The notes: generated by a model not told the origin, from the sequence alone. 64,000 nt of DNA from a virus (IMGVR_UViG_3300021478_000015:64001-128000), one strand, 5' to 3'; counted from the first letter of the stretch, positions 9,303 to 64,000 are shown. Program-made: numbers and translations.

Positions 9303-9318
9303 CGCGAAAGGTTGTGGC

Positions 9319-10155
9319 ATGACCATTTACGTGCAGATGGACAACTCGGCTGCCGTCGAGCATTACCGAGATGATCCTGACTCCGAGGAACTCAAGACTC
9401 GCGCCTTGACCGGCGAGCGTATCTTCGAGATCTCCTTTCCCGATGGTGACGAGGAGAACCCCGTCACTCTGCGGGAGATGATCATGACCACCATGGCCAC
9501 CTACCGGCATCACCAGGAGGCCGGGAACACCGAGGGCCGTGCTCTGGTCCGGCCCAGGTGGGTGCGCTCCAATGACGATCGGCTGGAGGCTGCCCTGGTC
9601 GATGAGTACCGCATCACCAAGAACGAGATCCCGAGTGGCTTCGGCTCCGAGCATGGCTCCTGGGATCAGGTGGCCATGCCCTCCCTGCGGACCATCACCC
9701 AGACGGCCAGCTTGCTCAGCCTGAGCTTGTACGTCTTGGCCGCCTGGAGCCTGTTCCGCCTCACCCGGCTCAACCTGAGGACCACGGTCGGGCGCGACTG
9801 GCAGGCCAACCTCATGGGCAACCCGGCCAACAATGGCACCGGGGTCTACGCCGCGGCCGCCTGGATCGGGCTCACCGCCGACAGCACTGCGCCCACCTTG
9901 GCCGACACGGTCTTGCCGGGCGAGATCATCTCAGGTACCTTGACCCGTGCCCAGGGGGCCTACGGGCATACCACCGGAGCAGCCAGCTATACGGTCAGCA
10001 AGCTGTTCGTGTCCGACCAGAGCATCACCATTCCTAAGATCGGAATCTTCAATGGTCCTACCGGTGGGTCACCATTCATCGAGACCATGTTGTCGGCTAC
10101 TGCAGTATTGAACTCGGGGGACCAGTTGCAGATAGTCTCAACTGTCACTTTGTAG
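9319..10155 (+). CDS. Minor virion structural protein
   Basis: C-terminal IGLTADSTAPTLADTVLPGEI...KIGIFN...LNSGDQLQI.. beta-domain of the phage tail/baseplate type. Confidence 0.55.
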   Translation: MTIYVQMDNSAAVEHYRDDPDSEELKTRALTGERIFEISFPDGDEENPVTLREMIMTTMATYRHHQEAGNTEGRALVRPRWVRSNDDRLEAALVDEYRITKNEIPSGFGSEHGSWDQVAMPSLRTITQTASLLSLSLYVLAAWSLFRLTRLNLRTTVGRDWQANLMGNPANNGTGVYAAAAWIGLTADSTAPTLADTVLPGEIISGTLTRAQGAYGHTTGAASYTVSKLFVSDQSITIPKIGIFNGPTGGSPFIETMLSATAVLNSGDQLQIVSTVTL

Positions 10156-40000: not shown

Positions 40001-43000
40001 GCCGCTCATGAAAGCGATTGGCACAAGCAGGCTGGGCTATCGACCTTCATAGCCATCGAGGCTCACCCTGACAGCTACCATACGCTGTATCGAGGATTGC
40101 ACTTCGGTGAGATTGAGCCACACAATATCGATGACTTCCACAAGAATCCCCAGAAGTACATGGGCCATGAGAAGAATGTTGGGATCCATTGGACCGACAA
40201 TCCGGACTCGGCCTACAACTTTGCCACCGATAGAGATCCCGAAGGCTGGGCGCATGAGGGAGATCCCGATGAGGAGCAGGGACATCTCCACGGCGTGATC
40301 CTGGAGGGAAGAGTCCATCCTCGCCACATCATCGACCCGGAGTCTGAGGAGGGCCAGGGCTATGCCATGTCCGACGCCATCCTGGGCCATGAGCATCCCG
40401 AGAACGAGGTGACGGTGCGCGGCGATGCCCGTGTGCATGTCCACAAGATCCACGCCATCACCGAGCACCCCGAGACCGGTGAGAATCGTTGGACCACCCA
40501 CAACGTCTCAGAGCATCACTTGGCCGTTCAATATGAAGCCCTCGGTCCTTATCGCAAGATCAACGTCGAAGACATCAAGCGCAACATGATCATTCGTCCC
40601 AGTTGGGGGCAACATGATTGGACCCGTACTACTGGTGATGCTCAGCATGATCCCGATCATCCTGACGACACTTCGCGTGAGTTTCCCGATGAGGATGATC
40701 CCGATCACGTCAAGATGTACGTGATCCCCATTCACCGGACCTTCACGCCCCATCAGCCTGAGGGGACTCCCTATCACGTCCGGGTTCGCAAGCAGGCCGG
40801 ATTGGAGGGCTTCATAGCGGCCCAGGGACCTACCTACTACCAGGGGCGGCGCAGCGATGGCAGCCGGGCTCAGATCGGCGGAGAGCGGGGTCAGGGCTGG
40901 GACGAGCATATGTTCGTGTCCCACGATCCCGAGGTGGCCCGCCTGTACGCCGGGCATCAGGGCAGCGTCCACGCCATCCACATGGCCCCCGACACCAAGG
41001 TGCTCAAGATCGACCGGGCCAATGGCCCCACCTGGAAGCGCTACGCCAAGGGCACCGAGGGCCAGGGCCTGCTGGACGAGGCCAAGACCATCGTGGCCCG
41101 TGCCGGAGGAGAGGGCTACCACGTTGTGGAGTTCCACCGGCCGCACGATTACATCGGCCACGTCATCCTGGACCGATCCAAGGTTCAGGGCGAGGAGCAT
41201 ATGGCCGCCGGTCACGGTGATCTCATAGGACGAGGATTACACCTCAATCTCTCCGATGAAGACGGCGATCATGAGCTAGCCAATAAGATCTGGGATCATC
41301 ATCCTGATGCGGCTCGACATCTCCTCCACACTATCCATGACATAGGCGGTGGTCACGCCGGGGCTTGGTGGGGAAGACTTAATCCTCAACATCGTGAGTT
41401 CAGCACCCATGAGGTCAAGGATTACGCCGAAGGAGGCGAAGGCGGCGAGGAGTTGATGAACAAGTGGCATCCTGAGGCCCATGATCCCGAGGAAGGCAAT
41501 CACGGTTTGCACGGTGGTGTGGATGTCGCCTTGATCGCTCACAACACCCATGGCTGGGACCCCGAGAAGAATCCTCTGGTGGCGGGCGGGCTCATGGGTA
41601 GCTCCTACATCCCCGAGGGCCAGGGCAAGGACATGCCCCTGCACTCGATCCATGTCAACGACGGTAGGGGCTGGCGACGGCTGCCTCACCCTCCTGGGCT
41701 GACCGTGACCGCGGCTGACGATGACGAGGATTGGCGGGGCCTGCACCAGCCCTCGATGGGGCCGCCTATCCACAACCTGCTGGAGAAGGACGAGGACGGC
41801 GGCCAGCTAGCCCCTGACGACATCTACACCCACATGCACTACTACACCGATGGCGAGGCCAACTGGGACAACGAGTCCCACGCCGCTATCCGCAAGGCCC
41901 GTGGTGACATGCCGCTACACCAGCGCCCGGCTGCACCGGCCAAGATGTTCTCGGAGCGAGCCGGTGGGGGCGAGATGAGCCCGGCCCGAGAAGCTGAAAG
42001 CGATGAGGCCTTCGCCCAGCGCCAGCAACGGCGCAAAGACGGTGAGCACCACGTCACCATCTACCGGGCTGCCCCCAAGGGGCTCAAGTCCATCGGGCCA
42101 GGGGATTGGGTCACGCCCTCGCCCAGCTACGCCCGCGACCACGCCCGTCAGGCCAGCGACCCCAAGAAGGACTGGCCGGTCTACAAGGCCTCGGTCCCGG
42201 CCAAGCATGTGCGCTGGGCCGGGGACTCCCTCAACGAGTTCGGATATTCGGGGCCTGCGGTTAAGCCCACTTACCACACCAGGGGTGGCACCCAGGCCGA
42301 GCGTCTGGCCGCATTCGTGGTCGAGGCTGATCAGCCTTACGCCGGGGGCTACCAGTTCAAGTTCCGCAAGGCCCAACCCAACTCCATGGAGGCTCAGGCC
42401 GATAAGACGCTGAACTATCACCGCCTGGATGCCTTCCATGAGAACACCCAGGATCTTACCCAGGGTCGCGGTGGTCATGCAGGCTTTCTACTCTGGCATC
42501 ACAAGACCGGTGAGATCGGCAGTATCGAGACCCTGCCCGAGCATCAGCGTCGAGGGCTGGCCACCGAGATGCTGGACCAGGCCCGCCAGATCTCCGCCAC
42601 CACCCGAGGGGTCAAGCCCCCGAAGCACTCCAATCAGCGCACCGACGCCGGGGAGGCCTGGGCACGCTCGACTGGCGACCGGCTGCCTCGCCGGGTGCAA
42701 TCCCTGGCCGCCTTCGTGGCTGCCCTGGACCCCTCCGAGATCTCTGAGACCTCACCGGAGGAGTTCCACCGCAACTTCTCCCGGTCCATCGCCGGTAGCC
42801 CCTTCGAGCGTCATGTCACCAACCACACCCCGGAGGAGATCCGCTCCGAGGGTATGAAGCCGCTTACTATCAACCATGGTACGAGTGGTGTCCTGATCCA
42901 TGATCACGGGGATGGTAGGATAGAGCCGACAGGACTGTACAACGATCGGGAGAAAGGAGTGAAGGGTGCCGGTATAGATCTTCTCAAGCATGCCGTTGAG

Positions 43001-43381
43001 CATCACGGGGCGAACTACTTTGAGTGTTACGGCCCGCAACTGCCGAAGATGTACGAGAAGCTCGGGTTCCATACCACCGAGAAGTATCCGTTCGATCCCT
43101 CCCAGGCCCATCCGGACTGGGATTACGAGCAGCACAACCACCCTGATTACCACATCATGAGACCGAACGATCCCCAGCAGAAGACGGCCGCGCTCCCGGC
43201 TGACGTGATCAGTCTTTCCGACGTGGACTGGGACGACCCGGCGGCGGTGGCCGCGTTCAAGGCCCAGACCGAAGCTGAGCTTGACGCTGAGGGCGGCCAG
43301 GACTGGGTCCACATGACGCCCGAGCAGAAGGAAGCCTCCTGGCAGGCAGCCCTGGCTCAACTCGGGGTCCATCTCCCCTAG
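34031..43381 (+). CDS. Capsid maturation protease fused to a polyvalent effector array (3116 aa)
   Basis: N-terminal 220 aa: RAISSR.NDNFD.FP.EEI...F.GKPVFVNH...RTSMG.DV..S.CSACGN...FFENSLLVE.PADPTA (cluster-C-type protease). Then papain-like x2, ParB/Srx x2, ART-fold x about 8, Nudix, GNAT-like x2, separated by repeated GLxxF(V/I/L)A linkers. Confidence 0.8.
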   Translation: MKHYAALEIISAEYGDQHSLRHLAHRADFTYAPRPGYLYVRSRAISSRTNDNFDDFPAEEIEKGYRSFIGKPVFVNHVNEDHKRARGVVIDAALHHDVNPNGSPDTWCEVLMEVDALRFPKLAQAIVQGHIDRTSMGVDVEYSICSACGNKATNPAEYCRHIPQMKGSKIVRRNAATNRPEETLIFETCYGLSFFENSLLVEDPADPTAYFLGVDDRGLRMAQKTAHRKLCRQCLTSSSCAAYGCGRSSEGLGAFVASTPGNFDKIPQHHWDYLSDLVDRVGQREKTPKVCWQVFSAIDHKLGYPQESGYYRGEGHYWNRLPDGSILDASHDQFEEDDDPVRIFAPGDPEHGHFKTAVRHQEGLGAFVAAHDLDEAVTSFKPYAEEQGWHDPTCVGGQCDVASTEFAQHLHEHGIPHEVVTHYPEPGGPMSHSVVEVGDHTVDWTARQFDPKADFPHIEPHHVTRSRWHRTEPYYGEIEYGKDYREASLAGDKSWIKEEHDYEGRHGERRHITRTMTGALPTHLVQHLMGVKGEIPGEHRNKQGQQWEDFKSDIAQNGIKNPIFITQDPGERPKISEGNHRRDAAVELGHPYVPVEMRYFGHAEQDPDNLEDKAQAHFDRENQIRSLGTRRLARYEPEPDAPEEGEYEKEPDPSGFFPNGIATRWRQAHKPLVADALHAWKGDPVNALTHWHHELNDDPQPDSGSGKQMRAQSGALRWELQNNSKTFGRKLYRGVPTAQDRLPKVGDIIDHDDRPRGYSSNRATAWAFARKSGSDHLRRPLVPVTYQTAPGTQGLRIKDYGTGSGLDQSEQEYVLHGQHQVTHVESTDKGLHVRTRPLQSYTAGLRGFVAARGDDPGLDEALDQLGEILSRPSHAPPPKILPEAHEMYGGYIHEHPSGHLHVSEAPGALSKPLEKLYRIVHPKEWEEAQQKGYLQSNTAFSPGYTRASAQPDERWRRQSADPSEIAPKGHTIEIDYHPDDNWHASAEGYAATRSKIPLSRVRKMAKTEVSVAGLAVLAADTGRVLMLQRANHDVKDPAAGTWEFPGGHLNPDEAPVEGAIREWKEELGCKLPAGHVQGHWISKKIYQGFVYVIEHEDEVDINHDHENRQVLNPDDPDGDEIEVAAWFEPKDLPDMPALRDEVKSGTDWSKLKLKKTAGLEAFLAAYYHVSPHWLPSGTKLTPGGGRRNFGGRADSDAVYMAGSEGEAEQWGNAMAQDEPTGHLHIYEVQPHGPVTHSQGHVTMDDFHDVIGQHAAPAATIVRHHYSYDPESGEAFYPHEAGLGALAAAEPTFYHGTSDDLEPGSQLSVEEATRRQPEVAKALEDRGGQHISFTTDYQHAQMYAGVRAQTRGGTPRVYRVQPTGGYEPNPADEKWREGKPPMSFRTKEPVTVLGEATPPKRRRKQSGLMAFVAVNASDEVPPEPGLSPIPEGHVRLFHQTGPKHVESIRQNGLTMEHARATGGPVGVWASHGTRFYPGQDHATVEFHVPYKELQDTAGGQSPHRHQPQEDWEQSNHHTLVIPRSIKPHEITAIHEPWHDRYRYFHNEGMTDEVKQGGFDNLKDIPDYGRAIDKIKSEASLHLAMNTEDEVPPRLGTAPIPEGHVRLYHHTWSKNVPSIREHGLLAEMGKGDSGKGYGNELSAGVWAASQHPEPDPQSDRHVIEFHAHPSEIDVNGPSPGQDVHKWQQGDHNVLMRGSVKPENILAIHAPWHTAYHQINDDPRDREDVKNGKLDWVHNDPSMPGVSKAVHKIQAEGAARPNIGKGWWLTPEGKKIGVYDHYETTPGMARQMIRPHMAESGQVRVRSFNNQLNVQTARPFTDKQRQSLLMDADRHSRMFVDVLHPDTEESIHSESGGPEEADRMLARAHRAAIPHEAKRAVQGARKVTQVPLQHILTHTEPTDMASYGHTWPDAFRDIEENHEDFAPKHWGKFLDHVQAHGIQTPVVILHDGERQKLFSGHHRVWAAHRLGLSHVPAYHTDDPSEAYDLMDEQAAHESDWHKQAGLSTFIAIEAHPDSYHTLYRGLHFGEIEPHNIDDFHKNPQKYMGHEKNVGIHWTDNPDSAYNFATDRDPEGWAHEGDPDEEQGHLHGVILEGRVHPRHIIDPESEEGQGYAMSDAILGHEHPENEVTVRGDARVHVHKIHAITEHPETGENRWTTHNVSEHHLAVQYEALGPYRKINVEDIKRNMIIRPSWGQHDWTRTTGDAQHDPDHPDDTSREFPDEDDPDHVKMYVIPIHRTFTPHQPEGTPYHVRVRKQAGLEGFIAAQGPTYYQGRRSDGSRAQIGGERGQGWDEHMFVSHDPEVARLYAGHQGSVHAIHMAPDTKVLKIDRANGPTWKRYAKGTEGQGLLDEAKTIVARAGGEGYHVVEFHRPHDYIGHVILDRSKVQGEEHMAAGHGDLIGRGLHLNLSDEDGDHELANKIWDHHPDAARHLLHTIHDIGGGHAGAWWGRLNPQHREFSTHEVKDYAEGGEGGEELMNKWHPEAHDPEEGNHGLHGGVDVALIAHNTHGWDPEKNPLVAGGLMGSSYIPEGQGKDMPLHSIHVNDGRGWRRLPHPPGLTVTAADDDEDWRGLHQPSMGPPIHNLLEKDEDGGQLAPDDIYTHMHYYTDGEANWDNESHAAIRKARGDMPLHQRPAAPAKMFSERAGGGEMSPAREAESDEAFAQRQQRRKDGEHHVTIYRAAPKGLKSIGPGDWVTPSPSYARDHARQASDPKKDWPVYKASVPAKHVRWAGDSLNEFGYSGPAVKPTYHTRGGTQAERLAAFVVEADQPYAGGYQFKFRKAQPNSMEAQADKTLNYHRLDAFHENTQDLTQGRGGHAGFLLWHHKTGEIGSIETLPEHQRRGLATEMLDQARQISATTRGVKPPKHSNQRTDAGEAWARSTGDRLPRRVQSLAAFVAALDPSEISETSPEEFHRNFSRSIAGSPFERHVTNHTPEEIRSEGMKPLTINHGTSGVLIHDHGDGRIEPTGLYNDREKGVKGAGIDLLKHAVEHHGANYFECYGPQLPKMYEKLGFHTTEKYPFDPSQAHPDWDYEQHNHPDYHIMRPNDPQQKTAALPADVISLSDVDWDDPAAVAAFKAQTEAELDAEGGQDWVHMTPEQKEASWQAALAQLGVHLP

Positions 43382-49048: not shown

Positions 49049-49306
49049 ATGGCCACTGGAGCAACCTTCGCTGTCATCAACGGGCAGATGGTTCAGGTCG
49101 GTCTCGACGGGTCGATAGCCCACAAGGCGGTGGTCGGCACCTGCATCAACTGCGGGCAGGCCAACGTGCAACTGGACACCCACTACGGCCGTCATGAGAA
49201 CGTGCGCTATGTTTGCCTGTCCGCCACCCAGCTTCCCTTCATCGACGCCAACCAGAGCGCTCTGCCCGCCAACCAGAAGGGAGCGGCTCCAAGCAAGCAC
49301 CGATGA
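49049..49306 (+). CDS. Small Zn-binding protein
   Basis: GTCINCGQ...HY...Y.CL. Confidence 0.55.
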   Translation: MATGATFAVINGQMVQVGLDGSIAHKAVVGTCINCGQANVQLDTHYGRHENVRYVCLSATQLPFIDANQSALPANQKGAAPSKHR

Positions 49307-50148
49307 CCAATCTCAAGATCAGTACGCTGGTCGATGACTTCAACAGCGGTACATGGAATCCAGCCTTATGGCAAGTCGTCCCCGCCGATGGTGGAGACAT
49401 GGTGAACGGTGGTTTTGTCGGTAACGGTGGGTCTGTAGCCGTGGTCGGTGGACAACTGTGCATCACCACTGCCATTAGTGCCGGTTCTAACTGGCGGTCA
49501 TTGGAGACTATCGGCCTTTACGATCTGACGAACTCGCAGATCACTATCCAGATGGTTAGTTACGGCGATGATGTCGCGGTGCCACAGTTGGATGCCTATC
49601 CGATGATCATATTTGATCCATCAGGGGCTTACGATTTTATCTGGACAGAGATCTACGATGGAACCTTGGTGATATGGGATGGGCAGGGTATTGGTGCATC
49701 ACTTGCCTACGATCCCGCCGTTCACAAATGGTTTCGGGTGTGGGAGTCCAGTGGTACTTACGGCTTCGACCACTCGATAGATGGCCTGACCTGGACGAAC
49801 ATCTACACCAGCGGCAGTGATCCCTTCGATCTAAGTGCTGTGAAGTTTGCTATCTGTTCCGGCAACGGTCAAGGAGTAGCGACAGCAGCCACAACTTCCA
49901 TCTTCGACAACGTCAATGTTCTGCCCCCACAGAAGCTCCACTACACCGAGCGCAACGGTGTCCTGGTCCAGGATGGGCTCAACCCCCTCCAGGGTATCCA
50001 GGACCCCGGCCCCGGCACCTGCATCAACTGCGGCCAGTACATCCCCAAGCTGAACCATCATTACTCGCAGTACTTCGGCTACATCTGCTTGCCGCCCTGG
50101 CAGCCCAACGGCACCGACCCCAGGCCCATCACCGTTCCCACTTCCTGA
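49303..50148 (+). CDS. ConA/LamG-like lectin domain protein with C-terminal Zn module
   Basis: DDFNSG.....W...YDLT.S...HKWFRV.ES.GT..FD.S.DG.TWT...FDNVN; start 49303 (ATGA). Confidence 0.55.
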   Translation: MTNLKISTLVDDFNSGTWNPALWQVVPADGGDMVNGGFVGNGGSVAVVGGQLCITTAISAGSNWRSLETIGLYDLTNSQITIQMVSYGDDVAVPQLDAYPMIIFDPSGAYDFIWTEIYDGTLVIWDGQGIGASLAYDPAVHKWFRVWESSGTYGFDHSIDGLTWTNIYTSGSDPFDLSAVKFAICSGNGQGVATAATTSIFDNVNVLPPQKLHYTERNGVLVQDGLNPLQGIQDPGPGTCINCGQYIPKLNHHYSQYFGYICLPPWQPNGTDPRPITVPTS

Positions 50149-53633: not shown

Positions 53634-54017
53634 ATGGCCAACCTCGTTACCGTCGAAGCCAATGCCCTGCTGGCGGCCTCCTCGGGGCAAGCGGCATACC
53701 CGGCGGTCACCGCCCCGGTCAAGGTCGCCCTGGTGACCGCCACCGGCACCGCGGCTGCTCCCGGTACCGAGGTGACCGGCGGCTCCTACGCCCGGCAGAC
53801 CATCACCTTCGCGGCTCCCTCGGGTGGCTCGATCGCCTCCAACGTGGCCCTCACCTACACCAACATGCCCGCCTGCACCGTCACCGGAGTGGATGAGTAC
53901 GATAGTACAGCCACACCCGTGAGACGCTGGTTTGGCGCTCTAAGTGCATCAAAAACGGTGAATGCAGGTGATACGTTCTCGATTGCGTCGGGTAGCTATA
54001 CAAAGACCCTGAGCTAG
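53634..54017 (+). CDS. Phage tail-fibre-associated structural protein
   Basis: VAL.TA......GTEVTGGSYARQ.I.F......G.L..SKTV.AGDTF....GS motif. Confidence 0.7.
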   Translation: MANLVTVEANALLAASSGQAAYPAVTAPVKVALVTATGTAAAPGTEVTGGSYARQTITFAAPSGGSIASNVALTYTNMPACTVTGVDEYDSTATPVRRWFGALSASKTVNAGDTFSIASGSYTKTLS

Positions 54018-54020
54018 CCC

Positions 54021-55634
54021 ATGGCGCTGTATCCGCCGCTGTGGATGCAGGAGGGCACCTATCCGGCCAACCTGGACCGGTTCTTCATCCAGGACGCCCT
54101 GGGACCCGGCCCAGCCCTTCTGAGTGGCTCTGGAGCCCTCCAGGTGACCCAACGGGCCGCCGGGACCAATATGTCGGTGGACGTGGCTGCAGGGCGAGCT
54201 TTGATCCCCGGCACCGACATCGCCAACCAGGGGGCCTACACCATCTGGTCCGACACCGTGGTCAACGTGCCCATCGCCGTCGCGCCGGGGGTGGGCACCG
54301 CCCGTATCGATCTGATCGTGGCTCAGGTTCGCGACGACTTCGTCATCGGTGGAGGCCGCAGCGACTTCGTCATCGTCCCCATCCAGGGCACCGCCGCTGT
54401 CACTGGTTCGCAGGTAGCTCCGGCCGTTCCATCTAGCACCTTGGTCTTGGCCCAGATCCTGGTCGGATCCAATGTTCCGGCCATCCTCAACTCCTTCATC
54501 ACCGACGTGCGGCCTTATGCCCGTGCCGCGAACACCCAGCTACTGGTCAGCCGTCCCCTGGCCTCTCTGATCACGGCGGGGTCGCCTTACACGGTCAACC
54601 ACAACCTGAACACCACCAGCCTGATCGTGGATATCTGGGACACGGTGACCAATCAGCGCATCATGGCCAACGTGGCCATCGTGGACGCCAACAACATCTC
54701 GGTGTCGGTGACCCAGAACGCCCCCAACCCGGTCAACGTGGTCATCATGGGCACCTCGGTGGCCCCCACCATGGTGTTGCCCTCGAACCTGGCCACCGTC
54801 CAGTACGTCCAGCAGCAACTGACCCAGGCGTACAACTTCGCCTTCATGCAGACCATTGCTTCGCCCACGGCCGCGGGCTCGCCTTACAGCATCGCCCACA
54901 ACCTCAATACCACCAACGTCTTTGTCGAGATCTGGGACGCCGTCACCAACCAGCTTGTGATGACTCAGATCAACATCGTGGATGTCAATCACATCTCGAT
55001 CACAGTGGCTCAGAACATGCCCAACTCCATCAACGTGGTGGTCATGGGCGTGGGTAATGCCCCTCTGCCACTCAACCCCTCTAACACCGCCACCAAGCAG
55101 TATGTCGATTCTAAGACGCCCACTCTTCCGGCTGCGGTTACCACTGGTGCCACCATTCAGAGCTTCACCGATTCGTTGGGCGATGTGTGGGTGGCTCTCA
55201 ACGGTGTTAACGGTGGGAACTGGAGGCGAGCCCGTGATGTCTTGCACTCCGCCGTTTATCGCAATGCTGCCTGGACTACTTCCAATGCTAATACTCCAAT
55301 AGCCTTTGACACTGTTATTAAGGACGACTACGGCCTCTGGGTTTCTCCTAGCTGGACTGCGCCTGTAGCGGGGTGGTACGACATTTATGGTCAGTATGAG
55401 GCCACGCCTGCGGCTGCTGGTAACTTGTTTAACATCTTCATTGGTGCGGGCGTATCCGCATATCAGTCTACGTTTGCGAGGGCAGTCGAGACCACGGCGG
55501 CTCGAACTCATGCCTCTCTCTACTTGGCCGCGGGTGGACAGGGTCAAGTTGTCCTTCAAACCACGGCGGCCTACACAGGAAGCACTGGTAACCAGTCTAC
55601 TTGTGGCCGCTTTCACTATATGGGATCGGGCTGA
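54021..55634 (+). CDS. Tail fibre protein with C-terminal C1q-like adhesin module
   Basis: N-terminal LQV.QR.AG.NMSVDVAAG...RIDLIVAQVRD anchor; two HNLNT repeats; C-terminal module shared with six downstream genes. Confidence 0.75.
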   Translation: MALYPPLWMQEGTYPANLDRFFIQDALGPGPALLSGSGALQVTQRAAGTNMSVDVAAGRALIPGTDIANQGAYTIWSDTVVNVPIAVAPGVGTARIDLIVAQVRDDFVIGGGRSDFVIVPIQGTAAVTGSQVAPAVPSSTLVLAQILVGSNVPAILNSFITDVRPYARAANTQLLVSRPLASLITAGSPYTVNHNLNTTSLIVDIWDTVTNQRIMANVAIVDANNISVSVTQNAPNPVNVVIMGTSVAPTMVLPSNLATVQYVQQQLTQAYNFAFMQTIASPTAAGSPYSIAHNLNTTNVFVEIWDAVTNQLVMTQINIVDVNHISITVAQNMPNSINVVVMGVGNAPLPLNPSNTATKQYVDSKTPTLPAAVTTGATIQSFTDSLGDVWVALNGVNGGNWRRARDVLHSAVYRNAAWTTSNANTPIAFDTVIKDDYGLWVSPSWTAPVAGWYDIYGQYEATPAAAGNLFNIFIGAGVSAYQSTFARAVETTAARTHASLYLAAGGQGQVVLQTTAAYTGSTGNQSTCGRFHYMGSG

Positions 55635-56227
55635 TGTCGCTCATTCCCACCTACGCCCCTCCGGACAACCTTCCGGCTCCGCTCACATACGGCGGCATCC
55701 AGTCGTACACCGACATCTACGGCGACGTGTGGGTGGCCCTGGTCGGGGTCAATGGAGGAGCCTGGAGACGAGCCAAGGATGTCCTCTTCAGCCACGTCTA
55801 TCGCGTCGCTGCTCTGAACTTGACGGCTGGCGGTGCCACCACGCTTATGGATGGCACGATCTCGGACAACTATAGTCTGTACAATCCCGGCTTCCAAAGC
55901 GGAGTGGGTGCCTACATCATCCCGGTAGCAGGCTGGTACGAAGCTGTCCATCAAGTGGGAGGCACTGCCACTGCGGTCGGTCAGCAGATGGATGCTCGCA
56001 TCTATAACAACGGTGTTTTGATGAGCGTGGCCAGGGTGCATACCACGCTGGCCACCAGTTTCTCAGCCATAACAACGTACTTGGGCCTCTGCAATGTCAA
56101 TGACTACGTGCAGCCTTGGGACTACTGCAGCGCCACCATAGCGGCCATTGTGGGCTCGGGTACCCCGCCGAGCTTCGGTCCAGGGTACTGGACCTATTCC
56201 ATCCTTCGATACCGGGGGACGGGCTGA
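55634..56227 (+). CDS. Adhesin module paralog 1 (C1q-like)
   Basis: LPAP...IQS.TD..GDVWVA..GVNGG.W.RA.D plus PVAGWY; start 55634 (TGATG). Confidence 0.7.
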   Translation: MSLIPTYAPPDNLPAPLTYGGIQSYTDIYGDVWVALVGVNGGAWRRAKDVLFSHVYRVAALNLTAGGATTLMDGTISDNYSLYNPGFQSGVGAYIIPVAGWYEAVHQVGGTATAVGQQMDARIYNNGVLMSVARVHTTLATSFSAITTYLGLCNVNDYVQPWDYCSATIAAIVGSGTPPSFGPGYWTYSILRYRGTG

Positions 56228-56793
56228 TGAGCCTAATCCCCACTTACGCTATCCCCGACAGTCTTCCGCCTCCGGTTATCTCTGGTACCACCGTGCAGTC
56301 ATTCACCGACGTGTGGGGCGATGTGTGGATAGCCAAGAACGGGGTCTATGGAGGAGCTTGGAAACGGGCGCGGGACACCCTCTACGGCAAGTGGTATCGC
56401 AATGCTGCCTTCACGTTGCCAGCGGGGCAGGCCGCGGTCCCACTTGATAGCACTACCCGAGATCCCTACAGCATGTACACCAATCCTGCCGGTAGTGCTG
56501 CGTATCCGCCTATTTCAGGTCTGTATGACATTCTCTGGCAGGTTACGGCTAATGCTACTGCTAGCGGTCAGTGGGTACAACCTCGGTTTTTCATCAATGG
56601 TATGCTGATGGGTGTTTCTCAGTCTTATGCCTCTTCGGTTAACGCCTTTAGCAGTGTCATAAGCCAGCAGTTTGTTCTCCATGTGGGAGATTACATACAG
56701 TTCTACGACAACGCTAGTACTGCGTTGGCAGCAGGAGTAGGCGCTCCGGGTTACTGGACTTACGCCACCGTCGAGTACTACGGAACGGGGTGA
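56227..56793 (+). CDS. Adhesin module paralog 2
   Basis: Same conserved N-terminus; ends YYGTG; start 56227. Confidence 0.7.
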   Translation: MSLIPTYAIPDSLPPPVISGTTVQSFTDVWGDVWIAKNGVYGGAWKRARDTLYGKWYRNAAFTLPAGQAAVPLDSTTRDPYSMYTNPAGSAAYPPISGLYDILWQVTANATASGQWVQPRFFINGMLMGVSQSYASSVNAFSSVISQQFVLHVGDYIQFYDNASTALAAGVGAPGYWTYATVEYYGTG

Positions 56794-56797
56794 TGTC

Positions 56798-57346
56798 ATG
56801 AGCCTTGTTCCTGCCTATGCCATTCCTGATAATCTTCCGGCTCCCGTTACCTCGGGTGCCACCATCCAATCGTTCACCGATGTTTGGGGTGACGTATGGG
56901 TGGCCAAGAACGGTGTCAATGGTGGGAGATGGAAACGGGCACGCGACGCCATCTACGCCAAGTGGTTTCGTAATGCGGCCATTTCCATTGCTGGTGCCGC
57001 TGTTCTTACGCTGGATACTATGACCAAGGACGACTATGGCCTCTACTCTGCGGCGGCGTTCACCGTACCGGTAGCAGGCTGGTACGATGTCGTCTTTCAG
57101 CTAGCCGTCACGGCCACCGCTACGGGACAATGGTGTTCGGCTCGCATCAACGTCAACGCGGCCTTGCAAGGGATTATGCGAGCGCATTCTGGTGCGGCGG
57201 CCGCCATCTCGGCCACCTGCATCCAGCAGCTTGCTTTCAACGCTGGAGACACCGTGAACGCGGTGGCTGAGGCCAGCGTTTCATTGGCTTGTACGCCGTT
57301 GGTTTACTGGACCTACGCCACCTTGCAGTATCGGGGGACGGGCTGA
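56798..57346 (+). CDS. Adhesin module paralog 3
   Basis: Same conserved N-terminus; ends YRGTG. Confidence 0.7.
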   Translation: MSLVPAYAIPDNLPAPVTSGATIQSFTDVWGDVWVAKNGVNGGRWKRARDAIYAKWFRNAAISIAGAAVLTLDTMTKDDYGLYSAAAFTVPVAGWYDVVFQLAVTATATGQWCSARINVNAALQGIMRAHSGAAAAISATCIQQLAFNAGDTVNAVAEASVSLACTPLVYWTYATLQYRGTG

Positions 57347-57915
57347 TGACCATCCAGACCTACGCCCTCATCGATAACCTGCCGCCGCCGGTCACCTCGG
57401 GATCGGGCATCCAGAGCTTTACCGACGCCATGACCGGCGAGGTTTGGATCGCCAAGAACGGTGTCTACGGTGGAGCTTGGCGCAAGGCCCGAGATGTGGT
57501 GCATTTCCATACCTACCGTGCTGCTGCCTACAACTTGCCCACCGCGTCGGCTGTTATCGTTTTCGATACCCCTTGGCATGACACCTGGGGATTTTCTGCT
57601 GGATCTAACTACCAGTTTACGGCCTGGATCCCAGGCTTTTATCGTGTCTTTTCCTACCTGGAAGTCTCGGTAGCGGCAGCGGGTACTTATATCCAGATGA
57701 ACCTCATGCAGAACAACGCCACCAACTGGTCCAGCGACAACTATTTCACCAGCCGTGCCTCCGGTGGTCTGTGTGCCCGGACTCAAGCGCTTATGTATTT
57801 AAGCATAGGAGATCTTGTCAACCTCCATGCTTACCAGCCACAGGGTTACCCATGCATCGTCAGTGGGAGTCCTCCTCCCTGTCATCTTGAAGTCAGTTAT
57901 CTGGGTACCGGATGA
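57346..57915 (+). CDS. Adhesin module paralog 4
   Basis: Same conserved N-terminus; ends YLGTG; start 57346. Confidence 0.7.
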   Translation: MTIQTYALIDNLPPPVTSGSGIQSFTDAMTGEVWIAKNGVYGGAWRKARDVVHFHTYRAAAYNLPTASAVIVFDTPWHDTWGFSAGSNYQFTAWIPGFYRVFSYLEVSVAAAGTYIQMNLMQNNATNWSSDNYFTSRASGGLCARTQALMYLSIGDLVNLHAYQPQGYPCIVSGSPPPCHLEVSYLGTG

Positions 57916-58517
57916 CCATCCAGGCTTATACCGGCGCTGAACTCAACATCCTGCCACCCCCGGTGACCACGGGTGGCATCCAGAGCTTCCTGGACCTCTA
58001 CAGAGAGCTTTGGATAGCAAAACCTGGCGTTAACGGAGGCAACTGGAGGAAGGCTCGCGATGTCCTCCACGCCTCGGTGTACCGTAATGCGGCTCTTGTT
58101 GCTCCCACGGCTAACTCCGTTTTTCCGGCTGACACCGTTATTCGTGACCCGTATGGCATCTGGGTTGGCAGCCCCACCTACGCGTTTGTGTTGCCAGTGG
58201 CGGGCAGTGTTTCAGGTGCGGTATACCCGGCCAGTTGGTGGCGCTTCGCCTTCCACTGGGTCTTGCAATCAGCGACCAGCCCCAACTATGTCGGCTGCCA
58301 GATCTTCCAGAACGGTTCGGGCGTCACCCAGGACAACATGATCATGAATCAAACCTCAGCCGGTAACTGTTCGGCCCGGACGCAGTACATGGGTCTTGGC
58401 TCGGCTAATGACACGTTTCAAGCGTATTATTCGTCCAGTGTTGCCAGCTTGAATGTCTATACTGGTCCGTCTATAAATACCTTCTCCTGCGCCTTCATGG
58501 GATTGTTCTTCGGATGA
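57912..58517 (+). CDS. Adhesin module paralog 5
   Basis: LPPPVT.GGIQSF.D...ELWIAK.GVNGG.WRKARD. Confidence 0.7.
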   Translation: MTIQAYTGAELNILPPPVTTGGIQSFLDLYRELWIAKPGVNGGNWRKARDVLHASVYRNAALVAPTANSVFPADTVIRDPYGIWVGSPTYAFVLPVAGSVSGAVYPASWWRFAFHWVLQSATSPNYVGCQIFQNGSGVTQDNMIMNQTSAGNCSARTQYMGLGSANDTFQAYYSSSVASLNVYTGPSINTFSCAFMGLFFG

Positions 58518-59074
58518 GCATTAACACGGGTGTTCCCGTCAATGGTTTCCCTCCTCCTTGGACGGCCTCGAACGTTGTTCAGTCTTACGTCGATCCATGG
58601 GGCGAAGTATGGGTGGCTAGAAGCAGTGTGGCCGGTGGCCAGTGGGGCAGAGCGCGTGATTGGCTACACGCTGTCATATATCGCAACGCCGCTTACACCA
58701 TGCCCACGTCACAGACCGTTATTCCCTATGACACTCAACTGGCTGACAACTTTGGTCTGTACACTGTCTCTCCCACTTACGGTTTCACCGTTCCGATAGC
58801 AGGCTGGTATTGGGTCCAGGCCACCTGTAATGGCAACTGCAATGCCACCGGGCAGTACATCCAGGGCAGTATCTTTCAAAACAGCACCGGTATCACCAAT
58901 GAGAACAGCATCACTTCTCTTACTGGCGGCGGGTTGTCCTGGCGCACCTGGAATGATGTGTTTTGTGCAGCCGGGGACAAGATCAACGCGCAGGCTTACA
59001 ACCCCACTGGATTGGCGGCCCAGGTGGGTCAGTCGAATACTCGACTAGAGATCTCATACATCGGTACTGGCTAG
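58514..59074 (+). CDS. Adhesin module paralog 6
   Basis: VQSYVDPWGEVWVA...GG.W.RARD; ends YIGTG. Confidence 0.7.
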   Translation: MSINTGVPVNGFPPPWTASNVVQSYVDPWGEVWVARSSVAGGQWGRARDWLHAVIYRNAAYTMPTSQTVIPYDTQLADNFGLYTVSPTYGFTVPIAGWYWVQATCNGNCNATGQYIQGSIFQNSTGITNENSITSLTGGGLSWRTWNDVFCAAGDKINAQAYNPTGLAAQVGQSNTRLEISYIGTG

Positions 59075-59082
59075 GAGAGCCC

Positions 59083-59424
59083 ATGAGCTACCAGACCCAA
59101 GCCCTGCTCAACGAGGACTCGGATTTCACCGGGCGGCGTTGTCGCTCCTGCCTGTTTCAGAAGGCGTCGGAGGTCTATCAGGAGGCCGGATCGGCCTCCG
59201 ATGTCCAGGCCCTGTCCAGCGCCTTGCTGAAGGACGACCCGGCTCCTCTGAGCGCCTTCCTGCGGGCCATTTGTGCCGCTCCGGGATTTGCCGACATGGT
59301 GGACAACGGGGATGGCACCATCGACCAGTCCAAGATCTCCGACGAGGATCTCCTGGCCGCGGTGACCGAGCTTTATCCCGTCATCGCCACGTTGTTCTTC
59401 ACCAGCGATGGCACTCCGGTCTGA
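59083..59424 (+). CDS. Hypothetical protein (possible fibre chaperone)
   Basis: AGGAG SD site; MSY.TQA.L..D.DF..R...I.D..LLAAV motif; follows the fibre genes. Confidence 0.55.
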   Translation: MSYQTQALLNEDSDFTGRRCRSCLFQKASEVYQEAGSASDVQALSSALLKDDPAPLSAFLRAICAAPGFADMVDNGDGTIDQSKISDEDLLAAVTELYPVIATLFFTSDGTPV

Positions 59425-59449: not shown

Positions 59450-62400
59450 ATGCCTGGCGGCCGTGTTTACAGCCTCACCTTCAATCGTAACTACGGCCCG
59501 CCGGTAGACGTTGGGATAGCCCCTTTAGCGGCCTCGGCCGGGATGACCATCGGGGCCACCGTCACCGAGATCGCAGCGGTGGCCATGGCGGGTTCGGCGG
59601 CCCTGCAGGTGGCCAGTACCACGCTGGTCGCAGGCAGCAAGATGGCCACGCTCACCGACGCCTTCACCACGGCCGGAGCCCCCGATTCCACCAAGTGGTT
59701 GCCCTACGCCAGTGCCGGGGTCACGGTGGCCAACTCGGGCGGAGCGTTGAGCGTCAGCCTGCCCGCCAATGCCGCCATAGGCGTCGGCGGGGGGATCTAC
59801 TCCGGCACCGCGGCCCAGCCCAACGGGAGCTACTACGACCTGACCGAGAGCTACGCCCTGTTCCAGATGACCAGCGCCGGGAACCAGGCTGACACCACCC
59901 ATCAGGCCCTGGTCACCTTCATGCTCTACGACCAGGACGGCAACGACTTTGGCTGGGCCGTCCAGGGCAACCAGATCTTCTGGCTGGACCAGGACGGCGT
60001 CCATCAGAATCCCCAGCCCTACAACGCCGCCACCTATCAGTGGTTGCGGATCCGCGAGCACGCCGGGACCACCTATTTCGACTACAGCGCGAACGGCAAC
60101 ATCTGGTCGAACTTCGCCGCCGTCCCGGACAGCACCTGGATCTATCCACCCCGGTACCTGCAGCCCACCTTTCAGTTCGACTCGCAGGCGGGCTCGGGGC
60201 TGGTGGCCCAGAGCGCCACCTTCGACAACTTCAACCTGCCTCCGGCCGCGGCCGTGCCTATGTCAGGGACCGCCGGGATGACCATCGGTGGGGCCGTCAC
60301 CAAGGTGGCGGCGACCTCCTTGGCCGCTACTGCCGGGATGACCGTAACCCCGGCGACGGCGACCGTAACGGCCTCCGTCTTTGCTCCCACCCATCTGCTG
60401 ACCGCCGCCGATGCGGACTTCGAGACCGGCGTGGGCTCCTGGGCTCCCCTCCAATACTGCAATGTGGCCCAGACCACGGCCGTGGCCCATACCGGCTCGG
60501 GAGCGCTGGCCATCACCTCGACAACGGCCACCTCGGGGCTCACCGCTTGGCCGACGCGCTACGCCGTTACCCCCGGCCAGATCTACAAGGCCAGCTTCTG
60601 GGCCATGGCCGCCACCAACGCCCGCAACGTGCAATGCCAACTGGTCTTCTACGACGCCAGTCTGGCGGTGATCGCAGGCTCGGGCGGCACCGCCACCATG
60701 GGCGATCAGGTGGGCTCCTGGAATCAGTTCGGGGCTCCACCGATAGCGGTCGCTCCACCCAACGCGGTCTATGCCGCGGTGCTGTTTGTTGGCTTCGGGG
60801 CGATTCCCGTCAACGAAGTCCACTACATCGACACCGTCACCCTTGATCAGCAACCGGGGGGTGTGGCCGCTCTGACGGTCGGGGCCATCGACATCACGGG
60901 TTCTCCCGATCTGCTATCGGCGGAGTCGTCTGGGTTCGAGGGCGGCACCACCGGTAACTGGAGTGGCACCGGGGGGCTGACGCTCACCAACATCACCTCG
61001 CAGGCCCATTCGGGCACTCACGCCCTGCAGATCTCCGCCACTCAGCCTGTCGGGACGGTCCAGGCCAAGCAGTCCACAACCATCCCGGTGACCCCTGGCT
61101 CGGCCTATGTCTTCAGCGGCTGGGCCATGGCCGGTTCGGCTTCGCTCACATCCGCCTTTTTACAGATCTCTTGGCTGACGGCGGCTCAGGCTCCGATCAG
61201 TACGACCAACGGAGTATCCACGCCGATCTCGACCTCGGCATGGGCATATCTGACCGTTAGTGATGTCGCTCCACCTACCGCGGCCTATGCTCAAATACAG
61301 ATCAACTGGCCGGTCACATCCGCCAATCTACCGATTTACTGGGATGACTTTAGCTTCGCCTCGGTACTGGTCAGCATGGGCGCAGTCAATGTGCTGGCCA
61401 CCGACGACTCGACCTTCGAGGGCGGCACCGCTGGATCCTGGATCAATGTGTCCGGTACCACCGTGGCTAATACTACCGCGGTGGCCTCAAGTGGTACTCA
61501 TGCTCTTGCTATCACCGCCACCGGTACCGGGGGTGGCCAGATTTCGACATCACATACGCTTTATCCAGCCATTGCTGGGGTTAGTTACACGGCCAGTTTG
61601 GATTCTCAGGCGGCGACGATTCCTCGGGTTGTTTCTTGTATATTGAACTTCTACAACAATGCGGGAGGTTTTCTAGGTTCTTATACCAGTCCGCAACTCC
61701 CAGATAATACCTGGGTCAGGGTAACCGTATCGGGTGTTGCTCTGGCGAATACTGCCTATGTGGGAGTAGGTTGGAATAATAACAACAATGTCAGTGTCAA
61801 TGGCGAAGTCCATTACATCGACAATGTCAGCCTTTATCAGACGGCTGGTGCGCTAGCCAAACTGAGCATAACGCCAACGGTCAAAGAGGTCGCCACTGTT
61901 GCTCAGTCGGGCACGGCGGGGTTGAGCATCGATACCTCGGTCACCGAAGTGGCTACGGCTCCTCTGAGCGCCAATGCCAGTCTGGCGGTGAGTGGTGCTC
62001 AGGTCACCGAAGTGGCCGCGGCTCCATTGGCCGCTTCGGCAGGCATGTTCGTGGCCACCACCGGCCTGCAGGTGGCCAGCATCACCCTGGCCGGAGGCGC
62101 AACGCTCAACATCAGTGGCCTCTTGACCGAGACCGCCAGCGTGGCCGAGGCGGCCAACGCCAGCATGGTCGTCACCGTCGCCTCCAAGACCATCACCGGC
62201 ACCCCCATCCTGGGCTTGGCCCTCAACGTGCTGGTGGGCGACGACTCCTCCTTCGAGAGCGGCAGCACCGGCACCTGGCAAGGCCAGAACACCACCGTGG
62301 CCAACACCACTGCCGTGGCCCAGAGCGGCACCCACTCCCTGGCCATCACCGCCACCACCACCTCGGGGGGCTCGGCCTCCACGGCCTGGAACCTCTACCC

Positions 62401-64000
62401 GGCTATCGCGGGCAATACCTACGCCGCCAACCTGGGCTCGCTGGCGGCCACCACGCCCCGCAGCTTCATGGTCCAGATCGTTTTCTTCGACGCTGGATCG
62501 AACGTGGTGGGCTCACTCAACGGGGTACCCGCCACCAATCAGACCGGCTCTACCTGGACCATCGCCTCCGCCCAGGGAGTGGCTCCAGCGGGCTCGGTCT
62601 GGATGGCGGTCTACTGGCGCAACAACACGGGCGTGAGCGCCATAGGCGAGGTTCACTACATCGACCTCGTCGTCCTGAAGCAGAACTTCGGGGCGGTGGC
62701 CGGACTCAGCATCGGCACCCCGGTCATCTCCAGGACCGCCTCCGTCCCTCTGGCCGCCACCACGGGCATGGCCATTGGAGGCAAGGTCTCCGAGGTTGCA
62801 TCCGTCCCTCTGGTCGGGAGCGCAGCCCTCACGGTCATACCCGTATGGCCGAAGGTGGAGGTGCTGAGGGATGCCTTCAATGTGAATGGCCCACCAGATC
62901 CGACCAAGTGGGTCATGTATGCCCCGTCTGGTCCGGATCCCGCGGCTGGTGGCGCTGATATTCCCACCGTGGTCAACCAGCAAGTGCAGTGGACGACCGG
63001 TGGTTATTACACGGGATTAGCTTCGGCCCAACCATACACCTTGATCGAGAGTCACATACTCTTCAATCTGGTCAACGCTGGAGACCAAAGTGTTAGCAGT
63101 GACTTGGAACTCTATTTGATGATGACCAACCGGGTACACAATCCGACCCTCTACAACGAGATTAACTGGTACATCAACGAAGGGAAGATCTACTCCAGCG
63201 TCTATGTCAACAACAACCAAGTACCCTGCGGTCCACCAGGAGGCGTCACCTTCGATCCGGTGGCGCATGCCTGGTTACGGTTTCGGGAGACGGGCGGCAC
63301 GATCTACTTTGACACCTCGGCGGATGGGCTTGTCTGGACCAACTTCGCCAGCACTCCTGACATACCTGAGGTAGCCCAACTCAACCTACTTCTCCAAGCC
63401 GGTACCTGGAGCTATCCCTCAACCCATAACGCGGTTGTCGCCTTTGACAACGTCAATAATCCACCTCCAGTTCTCGGTGGAGTACAGCAGTCGGCTACCT
63501 CGGGCCTGAGCATGACCGTTCAGAGCACCTTCTTGGCCTCGATGGATCTGGAGGCCGATGCCTACCTGAACGTCAAGTTCAAGGCCAATACTCTCCAGGA
63601 CAACTTCAACAGCGGAGTGCTTGATCCAAACAAGTGGTGGTTTGATGACGTAAGCGACGGCTATGGCGGCAAGGTCCAGATCGTCAATGGACAGGTCAAC
63701 ATCTCCACTGATCTCACCGCCTCGTATCCTGACCTGGAGGCCATGGGTGGTTACGATCTCACCGAGTCGAATATCACGCTTGAACTGGCCAGCGCCGGTA
63801 ATCAGAACCTGGCCTCATTGCAAGTGTGGATCATCGATGCCGGAGCAGGATGGTTCCTGCAGAACAATACTCTTACGGCTTATCTGGGCAATGTAACCGA
63901 AGTTGGTAATCCGCCTTACGGTCCTCGTTGGACTGGTGCTTACAATCCGGCTGTCCATAAGTGGTTTCGGGTGCGAGAAACGAGTGGCACGCTCTATTGG
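59450..64000 (+). CDS. Large lectin/CBM-repeat virion protein (>1517 aa, runs off the window; absent from ORF track)
   Basis: ATG 59450; the same frame reads ...KWFRVRETSGTLYW at the window end. Three ConA-like repeats and four CBM4/9-like repeats (FE.G..G.W...A.SG..AL.I) joined by Ala/Thr-rich spacers. Confidence 0.75.
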   Translation, partial: MPGGRVYSLTFNRNYGPPVDVGIAPLAASAGMTIGATVTEIAAVAMAGSAALQVASTTLVAGSKMATLTDAFTTAGAPDSTKWLPYASAGVTVANSGGALSVSLPANAAIGVGGGIYSGTAAQPNGSYYDLTESYALFQMTSAGNQADTTHQALVTFMLYDQDGNDFGWAVQGNQIFWLDQDGVHQNPQPYNAATYQWLRIREHAGTTYFDYSANGNIWSNFAAVPDSTWIYPPRYLQPTFQFDSQAGSGLVAQSATFDNFNLPPAAAVPMSGTAGMTIGGAVTKVAATSLAATAGMTVTPATATVTASVFAPTHLLTAADADFETGVGSWAPLQYCNVAQTTAVAHTGSGALAITSTTATSGLTAWPTRYAVTPGQIYKASFWAMAATNARNVQCQLVFYDASLAVIAGSGGTATMGDQVGSWNQFGAPPIAVAPPNAVYAAVLFVGFGAIPVNEVHYIDTVTLDQQPGGVAALTVGAIDITGSPDLLSAESSGFEGGTTGNWSGTGGLTLTNITSQAHSGTHALQISATQPVGTVQAKQSTTIPVTPGSAYVFSGWAMAGSASLTSAFLQISWLTAAQAPISTTNGVSTPISTSAWAYLTVSDVAPPTAAYAQIQINWPVTSANLPIYWDDFSFASVLVSMGAVNVLATDDSTFEGGTAGSWINVSGTTVANTTAVASSGTHALAITATGTGGGQISTSHTLYPAIAGVSYTASLDSQAATIPRVVSCILNFYNNAGGFLGSYTSPQLPDNTWVRVTVSGVALANTAYVGVGWNNNNNVSVNGEVHYIDNVSLYQTAGALAKLSITPTVKEVATVAQSGTAGLSIDTSVTEVATAPLSANASLAVSGAQVTEVAAAPLAASAGMFVATTGLQVASITLAGGATLNISGLLTETASVAEAANASMVVTVASKTITGTPILGLALNVLVGDDSSFESGSTGTWQGQNTTVANTTAVAQSGTHSLAITATTTSGGSASTAWNLYPAIAGNTYAANLGSLAATTPRSFMVQIVFFDAGSNVVGSLNGVPATNQTGSTWTIASAQGVAPAGSVWMAVYWRNNTGVSAIGEVHYIDLVVLKQNFGAVAGLSIGTPVISRTASVPLAATTGMAIGGKVSEVASVPLVGSAALTVIPVWPKVEVLRDAFNVNGPPDPTKWVMYAPSGPDPAAGGADIPTVVNQQVQWTTGGYYTGLASAQPYTLIESHILFNLVNAGDQSVSSDLELYLMMTNRVHNPTLYNEINWYINEGKIYSSVYVNNNQVPCGPPGGVTFDPVAHAWLRFRETGGTIYFDTSADGLVWTNFASTPDIPEVAQLNLLLQAGTWSYPSTHNAVVAFDNVNNPPPVLGGVQQSATSGLSMTVQSTFLASMDLEADAYLNVKFKANTLQDNFNSGVLDPNKWWFDDVSDGYGGKVQIVNGQVNISTDLTASYPDLEAMGGYDLTESNITLELASAGNQNLASLQVWIIDAGAGWFLQNNTLTAYLGNVTEVGNPPYGPRWTGAYNPAVHKWFRVRETSGTLYW

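Follow-up and report, generated by a model that had tools for sequence, protein, structure and literature searches.

A coupled array of seven predicted C1q/TNF-fold modules, one on a tail fibre and six free-standing, in an uncultured soil phage

Bellas et al. (2020, PMC7468147, citing earlier marine work) described C1q-like putative receptor-binding proteins (RBPs) that are encoded in variable islands of uncultured phages. Here we analyse a window of 64,000 nucleotides (nt), bases 64001–128000 of a 156,983-bp IMG/VR virus record (IMGVR_UViG_3300021478_000015, 100% complete according to CheckV), in which an open reading frame (ORF) for what can reasonably be called a tail fibre of 537 amino acids (aa) is followed by six ORFs of 182–201 aa that repeat its C-terminal end (positions 54021–59074, all on the plus strand). 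In the phages of Bellas et al., too, the gene for a C1q-fold domain is found at the tail fibre or behind it, and no other gene varies as much among phages that are otherwise near-identical; between the window and a close relative, the capsid protein is 98% identical, as against 45–68% for the modules. Theirs are single genes with population alleles, whereas the window carries seven paralogues in one genome, six of them shaft-less and in fixed order. C1q knobs in phages are already known, as are fibres that branch and phages with several RBPs; new here are the seven-member array, with six shaft-less knobs that have a common head, its stability across relatives, and a numerical link to a repeat in the fibre shaft. 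The best supported reading, which we hold tentatively and place just short of evenly balanced, is that one coupled operon makes seven C1q/TNF knobs, six of which are predicted to mount non-covalently on the fibre, making it multivalent or branched.

Several other systems combine an anchor with more than one RBP. An anchor-branch arrangement of RBPs is found in Klebsiella podophages. In the Ackermannviridae, TSP1–4 form branched complexes of multiple RBPs (PMC11414711). In both, a single protein combines the virion anchor with docking domains, and the other RBPs, with only a short conserved N-terminus, attach to it and make the particle multivalent; the gene architecture of the window would fit such a plan. 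The Ackermannviridae type uses T4 gp10-like XD docking domains and large beta-helix depolymerases, whereas in the window the candidate docks are beta-sandwich repeats of about 74 aa and the RBPs are C1q knobs of about 185 aa. In the chain-like fibres of the podophages GP4, VP1, and A1002 (PMC13730344; Zheng et al. 2023, cited there), a "rope" protein holds many small subunits at its repeated docking sites. In the window, a gene of the Gp80 family, the subunit type of the chain-like fibre I of GP4, directly precedes the fibre (Table 1), but the GP4-type subunits are Gp80-type dimers bound by beta-strand addition, while the C1q modules are of another family and probably trimers; none of the seven belongs to the Gp80 family, and no rope protein was identified.

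Short free-standing RBPs also occur in lactococcal P335-type baseplates (BppU/BppL of TP901-1, BppA of Tuc2009) and as the gp38 adhesin of T2-type phages. Like the modules, these combine a conserved N-terminus, there used for attachment, with a variable part, there a head that phages exchange at the conserved joint, but each genome has only one such gene, or one plus an accessory, with other folds and holders. Outside phages, the genes C1QA, C1QC, and C1QB of complement C1q lie in tandem, and their products form an ABC heterotrimer with a collagen stalk. The modules share with C1q the jelly-roll fold and the tandem paralogous genes (the products of which, in C1q, form one trimeric head), but they have no collagen repeat, and the ABC heterotrimer is proven for C1q.

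An earlier reading of the window, made from the sequence alone (the sequence-only reading), had the fibre end repeated as six consecutive genes, each with a conserved head and all but one of the seven modules with a Y-x-G-(T/S)-G end, and both the ORFs and the alignment agree with this. The last approximately 180 aa of the fibre (module M0) and the six short proteins (M1–M6) can be aligned over their full length with 31–51% identity, the fibre tip being 31–39% identical to the free modules and these up to 51% identical to one another. The seven-way alignment has 20 invariant columns, mostly in the head or first 50 residues, and the head consensus is LP.PVT.G..QS..D..G.VW.A...V.GG.W..A.D; the odd one out at the C-terminus is M5, which ends in FMGLFFG. 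A whole-genome search found exactly seven copies of the module (E-values 2e-19 to 9e-120). Each free module consists of a 10–14-aa N-terminal stub, the same head of about 40 aa, and a divergent knob.

Table 1. Features of the fibre and module array and of the genes on either side, numbered from the first base of the window
Feature	Position	Strand	Evidence and comparison
127-aa Gp80-family protein	53634..54017	+	Pfam PF23140 Gp80, 63.5 bits vs cut-off 27; directly upstream of fibre
Fibre, 537 aa (module M0 = C-terminal end)	54021..55634	+	ORF; PHROG virion-structural and tail-fibre matches; hidden Markov model (HMM) domain map
N-terminal anchor, aa 1–170	54021..54530	+	33% identical to N-termini of Streptomyces siphophage minor tail proteins, E 5e-11 to 7e-10
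Beta-sandwich repeat 1, aa 178–251	54552..54773	+	HMM match, direct DNA repeat D5; 90–97% identical to L060
Beta-sandwich repeat 2, aa 277–350	54849..55070	+	HMM match, model; 100% identical between L060 and L061 over most of its length
Conserved head of M0, aa 369–406 (LPAAVTTG...WRRARD)	55125..55238	+	Alignment; 63–77% identity to L060
C1q-like body of M0, covalent fibre tip	55239..55634	+	Homologous to modelled M3 body; body pN 0.52, pS 0.77 vs L060
M1, free-standing, 197 aa	55634..56227	+	Alignment, genome search; orthologues 57–60% in L060/L061; pN/pS 0.24/0.57
M2, free-standing, 188 aa	56227..56793	+	Alignment, genome search; orthologues 62–68%; pN/pS 0.21/0.65
M3, free-standing, 182 aa	56798..57346	+	The module modelled; orthologues 60–65%
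M4, free-standing, 189 aa	57346..57915	+	Pfam C1q sub-threshold, 18.7 bits; orthologues 50–52%
M5, free-standing, 201 aa	57912..58517	+	Without Y-x-G-T-G end; orthologues 45–46%; pN/pS 0.36/0.68
M6, free-standing, 186 aa	58514..59074	+	Most divergent head; orthologue 57% in L060; groups with L013 module
113-aa cassette-closing gene	59083..59424	+	Directly after last module in 21 loci; 85% identical in L060

The free modules each start with an ATG of their own, coupled to the preceding stop through TGATG overlaps of 1 nt (three junctions), ATGA overlaps of 4 nt (two), and a gap of 4 nt (one), and all free modules of the window and of related loci have an ATG start at the conserved place. Consensus scans found no internal promoters or terminators in the array above chance. 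The junction DNA ...GGGACGGGCTGATGA is stereotyped (55622–55636, 56215–56229, and 57334–57348) and is conserved at the nucleotide level across distant loci; in locus L016 it is placed in another frame with respect to the stop upstream. Five of the six downstream genes are in the -1 frame, which is open for 11–37 codons upstream of their starts, an arrangement in which programmed -1 frameshifting might fuse successive modules into multi-knob chains, and natural fusions do exist (a 921-aa protein in L030, and proteins with up to 11 tandem bodies). However, no X XXY YYZ slippery heptamer precedes any of the stops, a G5 run is present at only two junctions, ATGA and TGATG overlaps are ordinary coupling signals, and open upstream frames are expected in 62% GC DNA. 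We therefore rejected frameshift fusion for lack of slippery sites and give it hardly any credence.

The fold of the modules was modelled on M3 by AlphaFold2 with a 77-sequence module alignment, giving a mean predicted local distance difference test score (pLDDT) of 94.9 and a predicted template modelling score of 0.87. In the model, the body (about residues 52–182) is a C1q/TNF jelly roll, with Foldseek matches (probability 1.00, TM-score by target 0.73–0.86) to Caprin-2, C1QL, C1q globular heads (PDB 1pk6 among them), EDA, and other TNF ligands, and superpositions with a root-mean-square deviation of 2.2–2.9 over approximately 135 columns. The nearest phage structures are the central-spike knob of phi812, the tail complex of cyanophage A4, and the short-fibre binding domain of cyanophage A-1(L), and a BFVD search with the same model returned many phage "C1q domain" and tail-fibre proteins. 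The head is modelled with high confidence as two short strands and a short helix, preceded by approximately 10 residues of low confidence.

By sequence score the assignment is not apparent: the gathering score of Pfam C1q (PF00386) was not reached, the best module being M4 (18.7 bits vs. a cut-off of 23.7), M3 matches BclA_C below threshold (23.2 vs. 38 bits), and the other five modules have no Pfam match, while two distant family members have a precomputed PF00386 match. On the modelled fold, the modules are members of the C1q/TNF jelly-roll superfamily, in keeping with the C1q/TNF-like body proposed by the sequence-only reading, and they form a family of C1q-fold knobs that is new at the sequence level.

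Related loci in IMG/VR number 52. The closest are L060, with a 540-aa fibre and six modules, and L061, a short contig with the fibre end and five modules, both in the same order as in the window. In these relatives, the closest match to each free module of the window is the one at its own position (45–68%), the others being 30–50% identical, and a careful tree gave starred orthologue clades for M1 to M6. Between the window and L060, the flanking genes are 53–88% identical and the fibre shaft 74%, as compared with 98% for the capsid and 45–68% for the free modules. In comparisons of orthologues, the proportion of nonsynonymous differences (pN) is far below that of synonymous differences (pS) in all six free modules, and dN/dS is 0.09–0.41, with dS near saturation. 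The heads (pN 0.04–0.25) are more constrained than the bodies. Synonymous divergence from L060 is higher in the array than in its flanks (pS 0.57–0.74 vs. 0.33–0.52). Purifying selection together with their own coupled starts indicates that the free modules are selected, co-translated protein genes rather than silent cassettes, and on these grounds we regard all six as selected proteins that are probably expressed.

More distant relatives differ in content. In L013, which is syntenic on both sides, an M0-like module is fused behind one repeat and followed by three modules of the M4–M6 clade, two of which are placed as orthologues of M4 and M6, and M1–M3 are missing; the first of these three, which is the M4-like one, has a ConA-like lectin domain fused in front (8230–9399). 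L066 has a one-repeat fibre and three M4–M6-like modules. M1–M3 form one clade (support 100/97) older than the split between the window, L060, and L061. These differences in module content suggest that the array grows and shrinks in blocks over long times.

A lead to how the free modules may be attached comes from the fibre shaft, in which two repeats of approximately 74 aa lie between the N-terminal anchor and the head and knob. The repeats are modelled as sandwiches of 6–7 strands (pLDDT ~80) and are the fibre's most conserved part (90–100% between relatives). Their fold matches are generic: the best VIA Z-scores are 6.2–7.6 (6.2 for the end of an R-type pyocin fibre), and Foldseek gives a filamin-type Ig domain with an E-value of 3e-3. 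Using an iterated HMM, we surveyed the repeat across the 52 related loci, six loci being fetched afterwards as a test. The repeat is present in every fibre with free modules behind it (18 loci, including the six test loci) and absent from the 34 loci with a fused module only, L055 being the one exception. Among the 18 repeat loci, the number of free modules rises with the number of repeats (rho 0.57).

The ratio of repeats to free modules is 1/1 in L012, L009 (two fibres), L011, and L015; 2/2 in L008; 3/3 in L065; 4/4 in L016; 4/4 or more in L064; 4/3 in L010 and L067; 5/4 in L020 and L069; 4/1 in L068; 1/3 in L066 and L013; and 2/6 in the window and L060. Related pairs shift together, from 3/3 in L065 to 4/4 or more in L064 and from 1/3 in L066 to 2/6 in the window. 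A rule of one repeat per free module, which we had considered, was dropped in favour of a trend, given the exceptions. We also discarded an apparent "split fibre" in L016 attributed to an in-frame stop, as reading the sequence showed a divergent fused module ending in FMG*.

Because free modules track repeat-bearing fibres in both presence and number, the repeats may be lateral sites where the free knobs dock by stub and head, as in branched multi-RBP fibres, a lead that suggests a multivalent fibre. Under this model, one translationally coupled operon would produce seven different host-binding knobs of the C1q/TNF fold. One would be the covalent tip of a fibre made of anchor, two beta-sandwich repeats, head, and knob, while the six stand-alone knobs would be made together with the fibre and most likely mounted on it non-covalently, their stubs and heads docking to the repeats of the shaft. 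A single particle could then have several receptor specificities, and diversity would build up slowly as genes duplicate and diverge, with an occasional replacement at the head/body border and without a programmed switch.

A number of observations weigh against this model. The relation between repeats and modules is inexact (4/3, 5/4, 4/1, and 2/6). Since the loci are related, their independence is overstated by the statistics, and other proteins of the same loci also bear the repeat. The free modules have no recognisable anchor domain, and the head is equally conserved in single-module fibres that lack repeats, so its conservation may be structural or serve another partner. No fold family could be assigned to the repeat with VIA or Foldseek, and the searches run gave no match to a T4 gp10-like domain. 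Finally, no cultured relative carries the family: neither blastn with the array nor tblastn with M3 matched a deposited phage among 50,697 genomes. A 1:1 complex prediction of the shaft repeats with M3 scored 0.00 and is uninformative either way. The sequence-only reading had also proposed a multivalent virion of expressed tips; coupled ATGs, purifying selection, and positional orthology fit that proposal, and the comparative data point to the beta-sandwich repeats as the likely partner in any docking through the head.

The module phylogeny and the counts bear as well on how the knobs trimerise. M4, M5, and M6 form a clade with the L013 modules (94/97), alongside that of M1–M3, and the one-repeat relatives L066 and L013 (1/3) have three modules most similar to M4–M6, against six behind the two repeats of the window. 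Fibres of the anchor type thus have three modules to each repeat. C1q-family proteins can form heterotrimers, as human C1q does, and overlap coupling favours equimolar synthesis. M1–M3 and M4–M6 might accordingly each make up one mixed trimer in the manner of C1q A, B, and C, each perhaps on one repeat. However, the number of free modules is 1, 2, or 4 in many relatives, L009 has an M1-like module on its own, the family consists mostly of single fused modules, which must homotrimerise, and the triplet count comes from only three or four related lineages. On balance, mixed trimers are unlikely, though worth serious consideration. We think it improbable that the fibre is a branched, address-coded scaffold on which each repeat holds one such heterotrimer (M1–M3 or M4–M6), a phage counterpart of the C1q A/B/C head.

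The free modules lack the N-terminal anchor that is present in all fused fibres, and the same phage also encodes another anchor-less protein of the carbohydrate-binding type, a small stand-alone ConA-like lectin (49303–50148). It is therefore conceivable that the free modules are soluble lectins outside the virion, released at lysis or intracellular, which would mask receptors on debris and neighbouring cells or block superinfection. Against this, their genes are part of the fibre operon, placed after the fibre and before the 113-aa closing gene and coupled to the fibre stop; their head is the same as the one connecting knob and shaft in fused fibres; the number of free modules follows a feature of the shaft; and direct reading of the N-terminal stubs showed no evident signal peptide. 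We consider such a role improbable and favour knobs that would be mounted on the fibre.

The layout invites comparison with the pilS and vls cassette systems. It also resembles that of the orphan cassettes of CDI/Rhs polymorphic toxins (PMC3482391), with a main gene followed by an array of alternative C-terminal modules that have a common conserved joint. Orphan cassettes, however, usually lack translation starts and have near-identical joint DNA, while the window has coupled starts, selected proteins, and diverged joint DNA. The sequence-only reading had raised the alternative that the six genes are a reservoir recombining into the fibre gene through the conserved head, that is, donor cassettes that replace the fibre tip as in pilS, vls, and CDI/Rhs orphans. 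In its favour, identity between the window and L060 fibres is 63–97% through shaft and head and falls to approximately 20% right after ...ARDVL, just behind the head. The fused tip is also the only module without a clear orthologue in close relatives, being no closer to the L060 and L061 tips than to its paralogues (38%).

As an active mechanism, the reservoir is unsupported. Head DNA is approximately 63% identical among the copies, with a best stretch of 87% over 45 nt and no long identical tracts, which is too little for homologous exchange. Each of the six would-be cassettes has a start of its own and shows purifying selection, and their order and number are unchanged in close relatives; the related genomes in which the array was to be compared have the same seven modules in the same order in L060 and five free modules in L061, though L013 and L066 differ. 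The sequence-only reading had reported no invertase or reverse transcriptase (RT) visible in the window, and this holds for the complete 156,983-bp genome, which has no RT (RVT_1), no match to Resolvase (serine recombinase) or Phage_integrase (tyrosine recombinase), and no integrase in all its 157 kb.

Rearranged junctions at the conserved segment, which had been proposed as a check, were sought in Logan contigs of four soil metagenomes, the source run (X1) and three others (X2–X4); parts of the array that are uncovered in X2–X4 carry no meaning. No joints inside the array were found in these contigs, with rare variants beyond their reach, and five of the contigs bridge array junctions in reference order; short contigs of 100% identity from other samples bridge M1/M2, M2/M3, and M5/M6 in that order. 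We had also considered a swap of the fused tip, since a quick tree placed the tips of the window and of L060/L061 in different clades, but the careful tree left this unresolved and the approximately unbiased (AU) test did not reject simple orthology of the fused tips (p = 0.19), so the claim was downgraded. The data are consistent with, but do not prove, replacement of the tip at the head/body border over evolutionary time, and a recombining reservoir is in our judgement very improbable.

Known switching systems fare similarly. A diversity-generating retroelement is not indicated, as there is no RT and no near-identical repeat pair in or near the array, nor is an invertible or shufflon-type system, with no recombinase, all modules on one strand, and inverted repeats that are only short and imperfect. 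Silent or orphan cassettes do not agree with coupled ATGs, joint DNA of approximately 63% identity, pN well below pS, and fixed order and number.

Base composition sets the array apart from its surroundings. The AT-richer body of the sequence-only reading is borne out in part: the bodies have a GC content of 0.53–0.59, compared with 0.624 for the genome, and relative to its own head the body is lower in GC in six of seven modules and in third-position GC (GC3) in five of seven. GC3 is 0.53–0.80 across the whole array (55092–59074) vs. 0.75–0.91 in neighbouring structural genes, and 0.53–0.70 in the bodies vs. 0.84–0.91 in shaft and capsid genes. Low GC3 and divergence are as expected for fast-evolving or exchanged host-range genes.

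The window encodes a portal, a 3116-aa multidomain protein, a cement protein, and a major head protein, the last approximately 56% identical to those of large actinophages (Mycobacterium phages Phabba and Myrna, Gordonia phage Skog, and Rhodococcus phage Finch), and the capsid resembles those of Bxz1/Myrna-like actinophages. In Skog, the genes after the head gene are annotated as tail spike and minor tail proteins, matching the position of the array; together with the homology of the anchor, this is why we call the 537-aa protein a tail fibre. Pfam Phage_sheath_1 was not found in the genome, which does not settle the tail type.

The anchor occurs in 31 related loci, mostly fused straight to a single module, and most of the related loci encode a single anchor-plus-module protein of approximately 340 aa followed by a homologue of the 113-aa gene. 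This gene closes both single-module fibres and arrays and is duplicated in L009, L013, and L067. Its product has no Pfam, PHROG, NCBIfam, or Atlas family (an Atlas search gave only unnamed viral clusters), and by position only it is a candidate assembly factor. The Gp80-family gene likewise adjoins the fibre upstream in L060, L012, L013, L064, and L066. NCBIfam gave no match for the fibre, M3, 113-aa, Gp80-like, or 225-aa proteins.

Identical DNA was found in soil metagenomes only. A profile search of 1.84 billion representatives gave 378 clusters at E <= 1e-30 and 2938 at E <= 1e-10, including dozens of free-standing forms of approximately 185 aa and giants with up to 11 tandem bodies; among the cluster matches listed, none is from NCBI and none has a name beyond "hypothetical protein." A pattern scan of GTDB genomes found no relative of M3, so that prophages gave no host assignment. 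Natural fusions include a 921-aa protein with two complete tandem modules (L030, 1881–4643) and metagenomic proteins of 1754–2144 aa (protein P0049 noted among them) with 10–11 tandem C1q-like bodies. In L067 (6674–10195), a four-repeat fibre, three free modules, and the 113-aa gene share their contig with lysis enzymes and two integrase genes, so the cassette occurs in temperate-type phages too.

Proteins of this kind set the host range of uncultured soil phages, and the family is absent from the deposited phage genomes searched yet forms hundreds of metagenome clusters, many of them free-standing knobs. If docking is true, the number of specificities per fibre could be read from sequence by counting repeats and knob genes, and the fibre would offer a compact modular scaffold for studying and exchanging receptor-binding domains in laboratory phage-host pairs. 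If the knobs are heterotrimers, their binding sites would be combinatorial, a principle new to phage adhesins.

The window contains a second paralogue array at 6310–9302, with three tandem genes of 331–333 aa that are 51–60% identical; their first approximately 200 aa are near-invariant and match a PHROG tail-fibre family at the N-terminus, and their last approximately 130 aa are variable. A giant ORF that runs off the window (59450–64000) encodes CBM_4_9 and ConA-like lectin repeats, and the same ConA-like lectin domain stands alone in a 281-aa protein (49303–50148). Between the portal and capsid genes, the 3116-aa ORF (34031–43381) is protease-like at its N-terminus and also contains several ParB-like segments and a Nudix domain.

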